Below are positions 25,725-32,665 of a DNA stretch of 64,000 nt, piece by piece (the stretch's first letter is position 1; every line of letters starts with the position of its first letter). The translations under genes and the position numbers were made by a program. Below the pieces are notes generated by a model, which ran no database searches, was not told the DNA's origin, and saw only the letters and a list, made by a program, of their open reading frames with translations. This DNA comes from an uncultured Alphaproteobacteria bacterium (GTDB lineage: Bacteria; Pseudomonadota; Alphaproteobacteria; HIMB59; GCA-002718135): positions 32,240 through 96,239 of the forward strand of contig CACKNC010000001.1 of the NCBI GenBank assembly GCA_902601455.1, given 5' to 3'.

Positions 25725-25799
25725 TGGGGCGTCGCCAAGCGGTAAGGCATCGGTTTTTGGAGTCGACATTCGCAGGTTCGAATCCTGCCGCCCCAGCCA
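25725..25799 (+). tRNA. tRNA-Gln (anticodon UUG), CCA encoded
   Basis: Acceptor stem TGGGGCG/CGCCCCA, D-arm GCCAAGCGGTAAGGC as in E. coli tRNA-Gln, anticodon loop TTTTGGA, T-arm GCAGGTTCGAATCCTGC, then G-CCA. Confidence 0.9.
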
Positions 25800-25858: not shown

Positions 25859-26407
25859 TTAATTAAATAAATTACTATTTAATATCCTCCAATATTGGTT
25901 AACTAAGGGTTGATAAAATTTATTTTTGTAAATTTCTAAATTATAAATGCCCCATATATTTTCTTTTAATATCCACCCATTAATTTTTTTATATCTTACT
26001 TTGCACCAAAACAAAACGCATCTTTTAAGATCTAAAATATTATTTTTTTTAATTTCTCCTATGACTTTTCCATTTGGTCTGTTGAAGAGTTTTATTACAT
26101 TGTCATTTTTATAACCTGTCAGAACATATCTATCTCCTTTAATCAAACTTTTGTGCAACCAACCTACAGTTCCCATATGATCCCTTGTTTTTCTCCATGT
26201 CTCAAACTCATCAATTATTTCTACAGGTAAATTTTGTGTAACATATCTAAGGTGAATAGGATAATTTGTGCTTGGTCCAACACGTAAGTTAACTTCATTT
26301 GATTTTAGTGAAACAAATCTGGGTATTTCTAATCCGGTGACAGATCCAGATTTTGCATATAAATTATAACTAATTAAAAAAAACAAAATTAAAGAGATTA
26401 TTTTCAT
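25859..26407 (-). CDS. Secreted bacterial SH3-domain protein (DUF1058-type)
   Basis: True start at MKIISLILFFLISYNLYA (signal peptide). IPRFVSLKSNEVNLRVGPSTNYPI...PVEI..E...WRK.RD..G..GWLHKSL matches the alphaproteobacterial SH3/DUF1058 pattern. The track ORF extension to 26629 runs antisense through tRNA-Arg. Confidence 0.65.
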   Translation of the reverse strand: MKIISLILFFLISYNLYAKSGSVTGLEIPRFVSLKSNEVNLRVGPSTNYPIHLRYVTQNLPVEIIDEFETWRKTRDHMGTVGWLHKSLIKGDRYVLTGYKNDNVIKLFNRPNGKVIGEIKKNNILDLKRCVLFWCKVRYKKINGWILKENIWGIYNLEIYKNKFYQPLVNQYWRILNSNLFN

Positions 26408-26475: not shown

Positions 26476-26552
26476 GCGCCCGTAGCTCAATTGGATAGAG
26501 CGCCAGACTACGGATCTGGAGGTTAGGAGTTCGACTCTTCTCGGGCGCGCCA
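26476..26552 (+). tRNA. tRNA-Arg (anticodon ACG), CCA encoded
   Basis: Acceptor stem GCGCCCG/CGGGCGC, D-arm GCTCAATTGGATAGAGC, anticodon stem CCAGA/TCTGG with loop CTACGGA, T-arm AGGAGTTCGACTCTTCT, then G-CCA. Confidence 0.9.
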
Positions 26553-26681
26553 GCAAACGTGCGGAATTTATCTACTGTTCCGTTTTGAAAATTCCTATTC
26601 GGAACACTTCTGGAACACTTCGCATTCAAAAATTACCTTTTAAGTCTCAACTTTTATTGTAGTTAGTGGTAAGATATTTTG

Positions 26682-27209
26682 ATGAAAAAAATACTTTTAC
26701 TAGTTCTTTTTGTTTTTTTCGTTGCTCCTTTAGCAATTTCTAAAGAGACTGTTAGTCCATTTGGTATCGAACTTGGAAAAGAATTAGATAAAAAATACAT
26801 AGATGAAAGCAAAGAAGTTTTTGGGTGGGGAGTTTGTTATGATAACATAAGTCCTCCCATTAAGAATAGCAATTTTAATAATTATATGATTTGCACCACC
26901 CCTATATCAAAAACAGTAACTGCAATATTAGCAAAAAATAAAACAATTAATGATTGTTATGGATTGTATGCTGACCTAGTTAGAATTATAAGTAAAAAAT
27001 ATAATTTAGAATATGAAGAACCTTCACATAATAATCCTGTACAAATTTTAGATAATGAATTTATCAACATTTTGGTTTCATGCTATAAAGAAGAAGTTTT
27101 AGAAGTTAGATACGAACTTAGGACTGAAGAACTTAAAAAACTTATACAAGATGAAGGGCTTGAGTTTGAAGAAAATAGATTATCTAAAATTGATCAAGAA
27201 GGTCTATAA
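26682..27209 (+). CDS. Hypothetical secreted protein (cargo of cassette 1)
   Basis: Signal peptide MKKILLLVLFVFFVAPLAISKE. I recognise no family motif. The ATG at 26682 is preferred to the TTG at 26679. Confidence 0.5.
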   Translation: MKKILLLVLFVFFVAPLAISKETVSPFGIELGKELDKKYIDESKEVFGWGVCYDNISPPIKNSNFNNYMICTTPISKTVTAILAKNKTINDCYGLYADLVRIISKKYNLEYEEPSHNNPVQILDNEFINILVSCYKEEVLEVRYELRTEELKKLIQDEGLEFEENRLSKIDQEGL

Positions 27210-27248
27210 GTAGAGTTTAATTTTTTGTGGACCACTTATGGAACACTA

Positions 27249-27282
27249 AAGAATCATTTTTTTAACTTAACGAATGATTTTT
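27249..27282 (+). terminator. Weak AT-rich hairpin after the cassette-1 gene
   Basis: AAGAATCATT / AATGATTTTT pair (one G-T wobble) around a 14-nt loop and run into a T tract. This is low-stability, so only a tentative terminator. Confidence 0.25.
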
Positions 27283-27326
27283 CCCGTAATTCCGTATATG
27301 TGTTACAATCTAGTGCACGGGTAACG

Positions 27327-27373
27327 GACTACGGATCTGGAGGTTAGGAGTTCGACTCTTCTCGGGCGCGCCA
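27327..27373 (+). repeat. Exact direct repeat of the last 47 nt of tRNA-Arg (att-like fragment 1)
   Basis: GACTACGGATCTGGAGGTTAGGAGTTCGACTCTTCTCGGGCGCGCCA is identical to 26506..26552. No matching 5' half lies upstream. Confidence 0.9.
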
Positions 27374-27487
27374 AGTATCAAGCCAAAAAGTTAATTTCAA
27401 AAAAATCATAAAGTAAAAAAAGTTGGCCGTTTGTTGACTTTCATATTCAGAAATACCGATTTGCATTCAACATTCCTCTTAGAAAAA

Positions 27488-28234
27488 TTATTTTATTTTT
27501 TTATTAAAAACCACAGGCATTTTGCCTTTCCACTGAATCCAAAGATTAGGTTGTTCAATGCACTCACACATAAAATGAGCGACGTTTGCTCGCGTAGTAG
27601 TATGTCCATTAAAAATAGTTTGAGGAGGTGTCGCTACTACTTCATAGTTCGAAATTTCAGCATTAATGAGTCCGTCTGGTCGGACCACTACCCATTCAAT
27701 AAATTCATTTTCTGAACCAATGTTATCTCTCAAAAAAGCAGCGGAGGCTTCATTATCATAATGTGGTGGTATGAGGTTGCGTAACAGAGATAAAATAATT
27801 TTTTCGCTTGTGGTTACTCTCTCACCAGGATTGCGATTACCTACGGTGTTCATTAATAAAAATTTTGTTTTATCTAGAGAATGAGTAGCCTTAATAGCTA
27901 CACATAGACGTTTGACTGCTTCCAGAACAAGCGTTCTGGGTTTGCCAAATATTCCTTTGAAACTCATTGTGTGACCTAAGCAGGAAGCCACAGCAGCACA
28001 ACCTTTTACGGCTTCCAACATTTGTTCGTCACTCAGATCAAGCAAACTTGCTTTTATGATTTTGAGCTTTGGATTTTCAAGAAGTTCTTGTGGAAATTTA
28101 TTGAGTGACCGAACAATAATTCGAAGGTTATAGCCGCGGGCAAGAAGCTGTTTTACAAGAGGGAAACCAGTATTTCCTGTGGCTCCAACCACTAAAACTG
28201 TTTTAGAATTTGAATTGGTTTTTTCGGTTGTCAT
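27488..28234 (-). CDS. NAD(P)-binding atypical SDR / NmrA-like protein (cargo of cassette 2)
   Basis: N-terminus VLVVGATGNTGFPLVKQLLARGY (GxxGxxG Rossmann). 248 aa. Visibly more G+C-rich than its surroundings. Confidence 0.7.
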   Translation of the reverse strand: MTTEKTNSNSKTVLVVGATGNTGFPLVKQLLARGYNLRIIVRSLNKFPQELLENPKLKIIKASLLDLSDEQMLEAVKGCAAVASCLGHTMSFKGIFGKPRTLVLEAVKRLCVAIKATHSLDKTKFLLMNTVGNRNPGERVTTSEKIILSLLRNLIPPHYDNEASAAFLRDNIGSENEFIEWVVVRPDGLINAEISNYEVVATPPQTIFNGHTTTRANVAHFMCECIEQPNLWIQWKGKMPVVFNKKIK

Positions 28235-28323
28235 TTACCGGGCATATAGACTAACTTAATTTTCACTTCAACCAATTACCACTAAATTTGTTTCAAAGTT
28301 AAAGGTAAAATAAAGTGTGCCGT

Positions 28324-28353
28324 TTGATTCCTTTCACATTCAAAAACTACAAT
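28324..28353 (+). promoter_or_regulatory. Sigma70-like promoter candidate reading through att fragment 2 into the GT61 gene
   Basis: TTGATT (28324..28329), an 18-nt spacer, then TACAAT (28348..28353). It lies inside the conserved junction block. Confidence 0.25.
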
Positions 28354-28406
28354 TTTTCATTTTAAATTTCTTGCAATTCCTCAGTTTTATTTCTACAAGT
28401 GATCTT

Positions 28407-28459
28407 GCGCCGCTCTACGGATCTGGAGGTTAGGAGATCGACTCTTCTCGGGCGCGCCA
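28407..28459 (+). repeat. Degenerate direct repeat of the tRNA-Arg 3' half (att-like fragment 2)
   Basis: 28415..28459 matches the tRNA 3' end with one substitution (T to A at 28437). GCGCC at 28407..28411 also matches tRNA positions upstream of three mismatches. Confidence 0.85.
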
Positions 28460-28473
28460 AAAGAGAGGTTGTA

Positions 28474-29523
28474 ATGATCGTAGATTTTGATGAGAGTGAA
28501 ATTTTAAAAGAAAAAGCTCTAAATGAGAAGTTCAAATCAGCTGTATTAAAAGATATCAGTGAAAATTGCAAAATCTTAAATACTGATTTTTATTTGGACT
28601 CTTTTAATTATTTTCCAATAACTATGGAAGACCAAACTTTTAGTAGATTATTTAAACGACAAGATGATAATTCTATAGATCATATATATTCTGAATATTT
28701 TTATAAAAATTTTCTAGATAACAAAAATAGATTTAAATTGATCAAAGATTCTTTTGTATTAGGCAGTAGCCCTTCTGATAATTATTTTTCTAACCTTATT
28801 CATTTTTTCCCACGTATTTTTTTTATTAATGAAAATAAAATTAACCTGTCAATTGAAAGAAATCTCTCAAATAAATTTAGAACATTTATTGAAAACATAT
28901 GTAAGATAAGGAACATTGAAGTATCATTTAACTTTATTGATGATGGTTTTTATAATTTTCAAAATTCTTCGATACCTCAGTTTTTTAACATTAATAAATC
29001 TATTAAAATTTTAAAGTTTTTTCTTGAAAAGATATTAATAAATATAAAAGTACCTCACTTTAAATCTAAAATTTATATTAGAAGAGAAGATGCTAATTAT
29101 AGAAAAATTTTAAACGAAGCTGATTTGATCAATAAATTGAGAAAACATAATTTTGAAATAATTAATCCTCAGCATTTTGAGATACTCGAACAAATGAAAA
29201 TTTTTTCCAATGCAGAAATAATTATTACTCCTCATGGATCAAATATGACTAACATAATATTTTGTAAAAAAGGAGCAAAAATTATTGAAATAAGTCCAAA
29301 TTTAAATGATGCTTATGAGCAAAATATTTCTACAAGGTACAGAAATATTGCATCATTTTTAGAATTAGATTTTAATACAATCAAAGCTGACAGTGTTGAT
29401 GTTAAAGAGCATTCAAAAGTCGCAAAAAAGTTCATTCATAAAAAAATTTTAGAGAATAGTAATTATTATAAAAACATGATTATAAAAATAGGTGAAATTG
29501 AAAAAAATATTAACAGCCTATAG
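28474..29523 (+). CDS. Glycosyltransferase family 61 / DUF563-like protein
   Basis: The C-terminal third has IITPHGSNMTNIIFCKKGAKIIEI (the GT61 HG(A/S)xxTN motif). The start at the MIVDFDE ATG (28474) is preceded by GAGAGG. The track ORF start at 28399 lies inside the tRNA fragment. Confidence 0.6.
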   Translation: MIVDFDESEILKEKALNEKFKSAVLKDISENCKILNTDFYLDSFNYFPITMEDQTFSRLFKRQDDNSIDHIYSEYFYKNFLDNKNRFKLIKDSFVLGSSPSDNYFSNLIHFFPRIFFINENKINLSIERNLSNKFRTFIENICKIRNIEVSFNFIDDGFYNFQNSSIPQFFNINKSIKILKFFLEKILINIKVPHFKSKIYIRREDANYRKILNEADLINKLRKHNFEIINPQHFEILEQMKIFSNAEIIITPHGSNMTNIIFCKKGAKIIEISPNLNDAYEQNISTRYRNIASFLELDFNTIKADSVDVKEHSKVAKKFIHKKILENSNYYKNMIIKIGEIEKNINSL

Positions 29524-30529
29524 TTTCATAACTAAGTATGGCTGCCATACTTGATCTTAGATTTAGGCACTTATTATTAGTATATATATTATTATTGTAT
29601 AAATTATTTATTAAAAATTCTTTTATTAATGAATTTTTAGAGGTTTGTAATTTTATAACTTTATAATTTTTTAAATCAGACTCATTAATTGTTTTTTTGA
29701 TTAAATTATCTAAATTTAATTGACCATCAATAAGATGAAAATTATCAGCGCTATTAGTTGTATAAATTAAAGCACCAATATCATTTACTATTGTTTCTAT
29801 CTCAATTTTTCTTTCTTTTGAAACTGTACTTACAAAATCGTTATAAATTTCATCAACCATACCTTGAAGATGATCTAATTCACTTTTTGATGGTTTTCTA
29901 AATGGATTAAATATATCCTTTGATTTTCCAGCTGAATTTGAAAATATTTTTATACCATTTTTTGTCTCAACTATATTTCCAAATATACCTGTTGAAATTG
30001 TTTTAGGCTCATCATAGAAAAACCAATCTGGTCCTTTTACTCCAATGCTACCAATAATAGATCCATAACTGGCATAAATTTCATCAGCAGCAGTTGCAAC
30101 CCAGTACCCTCCTGATGCCAAAAGCTGATTAGTATGAAATAATATTTTTGTATCATTATTATTTTTTTTATAATTTTTTATTATTTCATATATTTTTTTT
30201 GAAGCACCAACTGTTCCACCAGGGGAATTAATTGAAAAAATTATTGTTTTAGGTGAAATTTCCTCAAGAAATTCTAATTTTTTTTTTGTTTCTACTGGCG
30301 AGATAGAAAATATATTTGATAAATTAGCAAAATCAGTATTAGTATCAATAATAAGGCCATTTAATTCCAAAATAGCAATCACGTTGGAAGATTTTTCATC
30401 ACCAGACAGAAATGTAAATCTATCATTTTTTTCAAAAAAACTAGTAAAGATAATTGCTATTAAGATTATGGTAATAATTGAGATAAAAATGGCCGTTATC
30501 TTTAAAAAAGTATTCCAAAAAATTAACAT
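29510..30529 (-). CDS. sppA: Signal peptide peptidase SppA (S49 family, 36K type)
   Basis: N-terminal TM segment, INSPGGTV, ASGGYWVA and SIGV. 339 aa. Confidence 0.8.
   Translation of the reverse strand: MLIFWNTFLKITAIFISIITIILIAIIFTSFFEKNDRFTFLSGDEKSSNVIAILELNGLIIDTNTDFANLSNIFSISPVETKKKLEFLEEISPKTIIFSINSPGGTVGASKKIYEIIKNYKKNNNDTKILFHTNQLLASGGYWVATAADEIYASYGSIIGSIGVKGPDWFFYDEPKTISTGIFGNIVETKNGIKIFSNSAGKSKDIFNPFRKPSKSELDHLQGMVDEIYNDFVSTVSKERKIEIETIVNDIGALIYTTNSADNFHLIDGQLNLDNLIKKTINESDLKNYKVIKLQTSKNSLIKEFLINNLYNNNIYTNNKCLNLRSSMAAILSYETIGC

Positions 30530-30982: not shown

Positions 30983-32665
<1,683 letters not shown>

Follow-up and report, generated by a model that had tools for sequence, protein, structure and literature searches.

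In the window (the whole 64-kb stretch of DNA that was analysed, positions 32,240 to 96,239 of contig CACKNC010000001.1), an intact tRNA-Arg(ACG) gene is followed by two direct copies of its own 3′ half. Each of the two intervals delimited in this way carries one gene and no integrase. The locus is probably an accretion array at a population-wide integration hot spot in tRNA-Arg(ACG). Its two units (cassette 1, cassette 2) are probably integrase-less derivatives of elements encoding a tyrosine integrase, similar to cis-mobilisable elements (CIMEs), and would still be mobile. This reading is based on the repeats, on empty and alternative states of the site in relatives, on cognate integrases found at the same site in other genomes, on the conservation and covariation of the arms that border the cassettes, and on the near-identity of cassette 2 across species.

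The following scenario is proposed. Elements with a gene for a ~335-aa tyrosine integrase located immediately 3′ of attL would integrate at the anticodon loop/3′ half of tRNA-Arg(ACG). Each integration would regenerate the tRNA and displace the older 3′ half outward. The resulting order would be tRNA, cassette 1, perfect fragment, cassette 2, decayed fragment and GT61 (a Glycosyltransferase-61 gene), the newest unit being nearest the tRNA. The integrase gene (int) would have been deleted, each unit keeping left and right att arms of ~100 nt, matching arm-type repeats, a promoter-like motif and one cargo gene. The cassettes may be excised and integrated by the integrase of a co-resident element, which would act in trans or, after accretion, excise a composite.

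The comparison includes ~150 related loci, designated by L numbers and obtained from four sources: a protein scan of GTDB genomes with SppA (L001), a metagenome scan with a 32-mer of the T arm and acceptor stem (at least 120 loci, L003-L122), exact-protein look-ups of GroES (L123-L131) and exact-protein look-ups of further proteins. The SppA scan yielded one true relative because SppA evolves fast. Exact-protein look-ups with the SppA, the SDR (see below) and the cassette 1 protein of the window gave no match.

The tRNA-Arg repeats and the two cassettes

The copies of the tRNA-Arg core are as follows.
26476..26552, plus strand: intact tRNA-Arg(ACG), putative attL of the newest cassette; detected by ARAGORN and Rfam (tRNA, 64.7 bits); its 47-nt core is 26506-26552.
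27327..27373, plus strand: tRNA-Arg 3′ fragment 1, an exact 47-nt copy; putative attR of cassette 1 and attL of cassette 2.
28413..28459, plus strand: tRNA-Arg 3′ fragment 2, with 3 substitutions relative to the core; putative oldest attR.

The three core copies have the same orientation, with start-to-start distances of 821 and 1086 nt. No further copy of the core is found within the 64-kb window. A 19-mer taken from the repeat has 3 matches against 0.16 expected, and 0 of 100 shuffled sequences reached 3. A preliminary description of this DNA, made from the sequence alone, had reported the intact gene, the exact copy and a degenerate outer copy with a GCGCC extension. All three are confirmed, the outer copy being counted here as 28413-28459 with 3 substitutions (CT for GA at 28413-14, T>A at 28437); identity picks up again at GCGCC, 28407-28411. 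The description also held that the outermost fragment is the oldest, which agrees with the distal fragment being the decayed one both in the window and in L127. As it had stated, no 5′ tRNA half precedes either fragment; conserved element arms of ~100 nt are found there instead.

These arms fall into classes (A, B, C; see below). In classes A and C, identity with the tRNA starts at GACTACGG in the anticodon loop and extends through the tRNA 3′ end. An anticodon-loop crossover is reportedly one of the classes of tRNA integration distinguished by Williams in 2002. L022 and L093, two loci with very different backbones, have the same class C arm (98.9% identical), which continues into TCTAG in the former and TCTGG in the latter. 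This pattern is consistent with an attR composed of an element arm followed by a 3′ part from the host, and with a crossover that falls in the anticodon loop, 5′ of the 3′ strand of the anticodon stem. It is supportive rather than conclusive because wobble variants of the tRNA also exist.

Cassette 2 includes the following features.
27374..27476, plus strand: left (P′) arm, B type; contains AAAAAAAGTTGGCCGTTTG..CTTTCATATTCAGAAA.
27488..28234, minus strand: cargo gene encoding a 248-aa NAD(P)-binding, NmrA-like atypical short-chain dehydrogenase/reductase (SDR); Pfam NAD_binding_10, 9e-24; sole long open reading frame (ORF) of the second interval.
28275..28304, minus strand: promoter-like motif CTTTAACTTTGAAACAAATTTAGTGGTAAT upstream of the SDR gene, read from the sequence.
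28305..28412, plus strand: right (P) arm, class B; the GTGTGCCGTTTGATTCC..TTCACATTCAAAAA motif of the left arm is repeated (28308-28355 versus 27415-27462).

The segment made of core, cassette 2 and core (27327-28460) is 97.4% identical over 1134 nt to L127 (GCA_902511015.1), where the flanking backbone is 82% identical. In L127, cassette 2 adjoins the tRNA; beyond it come a different cassette (integrase remnant and PdxA) and a strongly decayed fragment. In L147, cassette 2 is 95.2% identical and the GT61 gene beside it only 66% identical. In L148, it is 95.1% identical and lies behind an intact tRNA. The position of cassette 2 in the array thus differs among these genomes. Cassette 2 keeps 95-97.6% identity in three other genomes, against only 66-82% for their backbones, and therefore spreads between SAR11 species as an integrase-less unit bounded exactly by tRNA cores.

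Both arms of cassette 2 are found elsewhere. The left arm is 93% identical to those of L058 and L050 and 83% identical to those of L085 and L120, all four having different cargo. The right arm is 95% identical to that of L058 and 91% identical to that of L103. The 90%-identity cluster of the SDR protein has 805 members, most of them encoded by contigs of ~1-2 kb. Taken by itself, the SDR gene (27474-28237) has 97-98% identity with the gene that closes a SnoaL / HisD-like (histidinol-dehydrogenase-like) / NmrA operon devoid of arms (L143, L144, L145, L146). Because a near-identical SDR gene sits in an operon without these arms, the gene seems to have been captured from the operon into the arm framework, or the reverse.

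Cassette 1 includes the following features.
26553..26681, plus strand: left (P′) arm; TGTTCCG, inverted, 26576-26582; GGAACAC, direct, 26601-26607 and 26612-26618.
26647-26675, plus strand: promoter-like motif TCAACTTTTATTGTAGTTAGTGGTAAGAT closing the left arm; unique to the cassettes within the window.
26682..27209, plus strand: cargo gene encoding 175 aa with a signal-peptide-like N-terminus; sole long ORF of the first interval.
27212..27326, plus strand: right (P) arm, class A; GGACCAC-TTAT-GGAACAC, 27229-27246, matching the left-arm heptamers.

The ORF list and Pfam bear out the earlier statement that each interval holds one credible ORF, signal-peptide-like on the plus strand and NmrA-like SDR on the minus strand. 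The left arm of cassette 1 is homologous to that of L091 (83%). Its layout (one inverted and two direct heptamers) is that of the arm preceding the integrase start codon in L024, L081, L117, L104, L107 and L132. The 175-aa protein has no Pfam match and only 5 homologues among 5.8 billion proteins; its AlphaFold2 model (predicted local distance difference test, pLDDT, 51) is unusable. This cargo is nearly unique: its sole notable relative is found in L142 (519-1044, 82% DNA identity), in a different island. The L142 island carries the same promoter-like motif, an HTH_17 gene and a gene encoding a 775-aa protein of unknown function; it has no tRNA-Arg core.

Arms and cognate integrases

The right arms are sorted according to the sequence that precedes the fragment. 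Class A (before fragment 1 of the window): the inner ~75 nt hardly vary among 11 cassettes whose cargo is unrelated. Class B (before fragment 2 of the window): alignment columns are on average 91% identical in 6 cassettes with 4 different cargoes; these arms have 6-14 further nt in common with the tRNA (GCGCCA, weakly GGAT). Class C is not present in the window. The left arms have a common layout: an AGTAT-like sequence, one inverted and two direct heptamers, CACTTTCAGAAAGAGAGTG, then immediately the ATG of the integrase gene. The heptamer varies according to the element (GTTGCAC, GTAACAG, TGTCAC, GTCAC, TCGCTAC, others); within one element, it is found again in the right arm, at a distance of ~85-100 nt from the core. 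Matching repeats of left and right arms are GGAACAC in cassette 1 of the window (26601-26618 and 27229-27246), CAACAC in L075/L058/L013 and CTGTCTC in L126. The B-type cassettes have GGCCGTTTG or TCCTTTT in both arms. The repeats are putative arm-type binding sites that would co-vary with their integrase. Nothing was found in the arms by Rfam.

In each of the two cassettes of the window, the cargo gene is preceded at short distance, on its coding strand, by the motif TCAAC-N-TTAGTGGTAAGAT. The sequence TTAGTGGTA occurs twice in the 64 kb, once ahead of each cassette gene. The form TCAAC-N-GGTTAGTGGTA(A/G)GAT is found at 26663-26671 (plus strand) and 28277-28285 (minus strand), 10-45 nt upstream of the cargo genes, and also in L031, L035, L058, L085, L091, L092, L120, L142 and L145. 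The motif resembles a promoter carried by the cassette, with an extended -10 element; some of the transcripts may lack a leader. A generic promoter/terminator scan did no better on this DNA than on shuffled sequence.

Among the matches listed, a tyrosine recombinase (Pfam Phage_integrase) is encoded at this site in 11 loci, 7 of them with a near full-length gene. The members of the main integrase family (~332-346 aa) are 60-82% identical to one another. Their genes point away from the intact tRNA or fragment, with the start 61-86 bp 3′ of it. Two further integrases, with an Arm-DNA-bind_3 domain, are encoded on the opposite side of a fragment (L006, L056). The family has 454 homologue clusters at E<=1e-20. 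One integrase allele (P0010), with an identical left arm, is found behind three variants of the tRNA 5′ half and behind a fragment, with different cargo each time. The P0010 element is spreading at present. P0010-type elements (L132-L138; ~1237-1311 in L132) have in common a hydrophobic mini-ORF of 25 aa that overlaps the stop codon of the integrase gene, and diverge after it.

The integrase family is not confined to tRNA-Arg. An integrase 60% identical to the tRNA-Arg family is encoded immediately 3′ of a tRNA-Phe(GAA) gene (L150, 9858-10996), and therefore the same family also targets another tRNA. In a recent preprint, tRNA-Phe is given as one anchor of the hypervariable region of Pelagibacter. 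More distant homologues (P0045, P0072, P0068) are encoded at other loci, one of them beside tRNA-Phe; no complete element with both ends is found at these three loci. Among the loci sampled, none contains a full autonomous element with a right arm of class A or class B. The class C elements (L107, 5692-8372, minus strand, original coordinates; L104) encode an HTH_17 (excisionase-like) protein and a 692-aa VapE/DUF5906 protein, which look like an excision/integration and replication module of tycheposon or satellite type.

The first codons of int are kept, with the integrase leader, in the integrase-less sister cassettes L085, L049, L041/L113, L126 and L127 (19 codons in L127). These remnants show that the cassettes arose by deletion from elements that had an integrase. 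In L075 (10800-10920, as oriented), the integrase gene is apparently deleted between ATGGCTACT (integrase start) and TTGGCTACT (mini-ORF). This pattern suggests a microhomology-mediated loss of the gene.

States of the site in relatives and competing explanations

The array is inserted in a conserved backbone. The gene order common to the related loci is SH3, tRNA-Arg, GT61, SppA, groES, groEL. The two flanks of the array in the window are as follows.
25859..26407, minus strand: SH3-domain gene (Pfam SH3_4/SH3_3), left backbone flank; adjoins tRNA-Arg in ~45 related loci among the matches listed.
28474..29523, plus strand: GT61 gene (Pfam), right backbone flank; starts 14 nt past the last fragment.

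The 14-nt junction between fragment 2 and GT61 is the same as the junction between the tRNA and GT61 in empty sites. The G+C content of the window is ~30%. ARAGORN detects two tRNA genes, both on the plus strand, and Rfam agrees on both: tRNA-Gln (25725-25799) and tRNA-Arg(ACG) (26476-26552). The host is assigned to SAR11 (Pelagibacteraceae) because the GroES encoded by the window is identical to proteins labelled 'Pelagibacteraceae bacterium' by NCBI. The GT61 and SppA genes beside the hot spot evolve very fast: among loci with GroES 89-100% identical, amino-acid identity is 40-74% for GT61 and 42-65% for SppA (28474-30529 in the window, and related loci).

Presence or absence of cassettes and alternative cargo between the same conserved flanks, which the preliminary description had put forward as a check, are both found. 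Among the matches listed, 66 intact tRNAs have at least 400 nt downstream: 34 are followed directly by GT61, 5 by an integrase gene and 27 by other cargo. In empty sites, the tRNA is 1-80 bp from GT61 (13-80 bp in L001, L007, L028, L070, L124, L131 and ~30 further loci among the matches listed). The closest relatives among the loci sampled, according to GT61 or GroES identity (L007, L028, L070, L124, L131), are empty, with a gap of 13-15 nt. The matches listed also include ~35 tRNA fragments without a 5′ half, a longest array of 5 core copies (L058) and 145 ORFs at the island position, which group into 105 families. The cargo of the islands includes methyltransferases, sulfotransferases, transporters, sugar enzymes, superoxide dismutase and many proteins of unknown function. 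Together with the start of identity in the anticodon loop, the empty sites and the alternative cargo support the serial site-specific integration into the tRNA-Arg 3′ half that had been proposed for this locus.

The array turns over within a population, because L013 and L058 differ in 3 internal cassettes although their flanks and one cassette are >99% identical. Many core copies (47 of 129 among the matches listed) lie within 120 nt of a contig end, as is expected of a repeat with a variable context; the hot-spot structure accounts for the assembly breaks at this tRNA. Two loci are atypical. L123 (5668-5794) has an intact tRNA-Arg, 3 nt (GCT), a complete 47-nt fragment, then GT61. Such an 'empty cassette' is not expected from site-specific recombination; the contig has many broken genes, and a sequencing error may be involved. 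In L125 (228-5786), three full copies of tRNA-Arg are accompanied by partly duplicated SH3, GT61 and SppA genes and by stretches of N; the contig was probably scaffolded as a chimera of strains that differ at the hot spot.

Several points weigh against mobile derivatives of tyrosine-integrase elements. Neither circular nor excised forms were observed. Among the loci sampled, B-type or GGAACAC arms are not found on any element that has an integrase. A hidden Markov model built from the cognate integrases gave no match, even at E<=10, in the six frames of the 64-kb window (tyrosine recombinases only). For the window, this upholds the earlier statement that no integrase lies in or beside the array; the statement does not extend to the same site in other genomes, where integrases are present. 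One class A cassette, at 2342-3846 of L058, has no heptamer match between its arms, and the arm repeats could partly be terminator hairpins and not protein-binding sites. High-identity boundaries at the 47-nt cores are also expected from RecA-mediated exchange, and SAR11 recombines very frequently.

The last point leads to the alternative that survives best. Cassettes built by an integrase would now be spread and lost only by RecA-dependent exchange, the cores (47-53 nt) and the ~100-nt arms providing portable homology. This explanation is rather unlikely, and it has several observations on its side. The 64-kb window encodes no integrase, the boundaries of the 95-97.6% identical copies of cassette 2 coincide with the cores, and the difference between L013 and L058 maps where the class A arm and core are ~92% alike. 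The full fragment located 3 nt after the tRNA in L123 is also hard to obtain by site-specific recombination. However, L127 and the window share no arm homology outside the cassette, and 47 nt is close to the minimum length for efficient homologous recombination. Recombination alone explains neither the conservation of arms across unrelated cargo nor the covariation of left and right repeats, and active integrase alleles are demonstrably spreading at the site. For cassette exchange itself, an integrase acting in trans and RecA-mediated exchange predict the same identity boundaries, at the cores.

In situ decay is much less probable. Both units would be immobile remnants of two larger integrase-bearing islands or prophages, reduced in place. 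The remnants of the integrase start in sister cassettes and the degenerate outer fragment fit such fossils, as does the fact that streamlined genomes delete DNA quickly. Against this, cassette 2 is found with both arms, 95-97.6% identical, in four backbones that are 66-82% identical and at different array positions. Decay is contradicted for cassette 2 because the same deletion product would have to arise independently each time. The preliminary description had left a choice between decay products and trans-mobilised mini-cassettes. Each is partly right: the cassettes descend from integrase-bearing elements present at this site in other genomes, yet cassette 2 has spread, with no integrase of its own, to at least three other backbones.

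The fragments could also be att scars left by podoviruses of the HTVC019P type integrating into tRNA-Arg, as for HTVC120P. Integration of a pelagiphage into a SAR11 tRNA-Arg has been shown by Zhao et al. (10.1101/410191). This origin is extremely improbable and was rejected, as no phage genes and no phage att matches are found: no cassette contains a phage gene, and in HTVC120P it is the 5′ side of the tRNA that is complemented, instead of the 3′ side. Searches of IMG/VR with the 47-mer, a degenerate 32-mer core, the class A and class B arm motifs and the integrase gave no match. Blastn against INPHARED phages gave unrelated tRNA-Arg matches only. The nearest phage integrases, from Ralstonia and Pseudomonas phages, are ~40% identical.

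Duplication of the tRNA gene with decay of the 5′ halves, or an assembly artefact, can be dismissed with near certainty: class B arms do share 6-14 further nt with the tRNA, but the 30-115 nt upstream of the fragments are conserved arms without acceptor or D-arm homology, and the array is not an assembly artefact because the same cassette and repeat structure is present in independent assemblies (L127, L147, L148; single-cell, metagenome-assembled genome and metagenome).

Known systems and meaning for SAR11

The integrase-less elements favoured here resemble CIMEs, known from the accretion-mobilisation of ICESt1/ICESt3 in Streptococcus thermophilus, where they are multi-kb relics of conjugative elements. 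Like CIMEs, the window units are integrase-less derivatives located between att sites of a related integrase element and arranged in tandem at the same tRNA-type site; travelling with an adjacent autonomous element is a CIME feature. Their att arms are related to those of integrase-bearing elements at the same target, and each has one cargo ORF and no recombination or transfer genes. They differ from CIMEs in being single-gene units without conjugation genes. Among the features of tRNA-targeting integrative elements, direct repeats in the same orientation, an empty attB and a block of identity that spans the tRNA from its anticodon loop to its 3′ end are found; an own integrase is not found in the window.

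The resemblance to integron cassettes noted in the preliminary description holds as an analogy and not as membership. Alike: ordered arrays of small, mostly single-gene units, borders made of recombination sites, diverse cargo, newest unit nearest the primary site. The integron integrase acts in trans on units that encode none, as may be the case for the window units. Different: no IntI, attI (with Pc) or attC in the window; a double-stranded tRNA 3′ half with lambda-type arms as the site; cassettes with their own promoter-like motif, in either orientation. An integron was rejected on these grounds: IntI, attI and attC are absent, the array starts at a tRNA, and the boundaries are tRNA 3′ halves with long asymmetric arms.

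Prochlorococcus tycheposons and 'cryptic' integrase elements have partial tRNAs between tandem elements and degenerate remnants (Hackl et al., 10.1101/2020.12.28.424599). When the relatives are included, the site has in common with tycheposons a tyrosine integrase beside the island tRNA, partial tRNA repeats, outward displacement of older elements by newer ones, degenerate remnants and ecologically relevant cargo. In the window itself, partial tRNA repeats are found and the recombinase is absent; it is found in relatives, and VapE/DUF5906 and HTH_17 are encoded by the class C relative L107. The window units differ in size (~0.8-1.1 kb) and in having one gene, no integrase and no replication module (primase/helicase). 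Pelagiphage HTVC120P (10.1101/410191) also has a SAR11 host, a tRNA-Arg target and a tyrosine integrase; it is a podovirus whose core lies in the middle of the tRNA and whose integration complements the 5′ part. The window cassettes have neither phage genes nor att sequences matching phages.

In the SAR11 genomospecies gMED, flexible genomic islands of the additive type are reported to be marked by partial repeats of tRNAs (PMC11796062); Methylopumilus has an additive island with repeats of the 3′ end of tRNA-Lys (flexible genomic island 2, fGI-2; PMC10872708). tRNA genes, including tRNA-Arg, are proposed as anchors of the Pelagibacter hypervariable region (10.64898/2026.04.03.716430). The Pelagibacter mobilome includes tyrosine-recombinase elements near tRNAs, some of them tycheposon-like (PMC11876622). 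The SAR11 additive islands (PMC11796062) are found in the same host clade as the array, are adjacent to tRNAs and have cassettes delimited by partial tRNA repeats, integrases being almost absent from the genomes. The SAR11 and Methylopumilus reports differ in that the repeats are noted briefly and that no ~100-nt arms, cognate integrases, integrase remnants or cross-species integrase-less cassette are described.

Partial-tRNA cassettes and tycheposon-like elements in SAR11 are thus already published (PMC11796062; PMC11876622), and the window is a clear small-scale example. What goes beyond the earlier reports is the definition of the arm modules and of the repeats that co-vary between them, the promoter motif of the cassettes, the family of integrases, and direct evidence that a unit of ~1 kb with one gene and no integrase moves between species.

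In the ocean, SAR11 outnumbers every other bacterial clade, and its genomes are usually portrayed as nearly devoid of mobile elements. At this locus and its relatives, single genes are added or swapped at a fixed tRNA site. The 'additive island' component of the SAR11 pangenome thereby gains a mechanism that is concrete and can be put to the test. Integrase-bearing elements would seed the site, lose the integrase and keep complete att arms, and the one-gene units would still move between species. Defined DNA sites (cores, arms, heptamers) and candidate integrases are now available for experiments.

A broader system, analogous to integrons and anchored on tRNAs, can tentatively be proposed for SAR11, although it is more doubtful than not. 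Standardised modules, made of left and right att arms of ~100 nt and a small promoter, would enclose virtually any single gene, whatever its orientation. A population pool of tRNA-Arg (and related tRNA-Phe) integrases would excise, exchange and stack recombinase-less mini-cassettes across species, and matching arm repeats would set which integrase moves which cassette. If such a system exists, it would be a major overlooked route to an open pangenome in a genome famous for lacking mobile elements.

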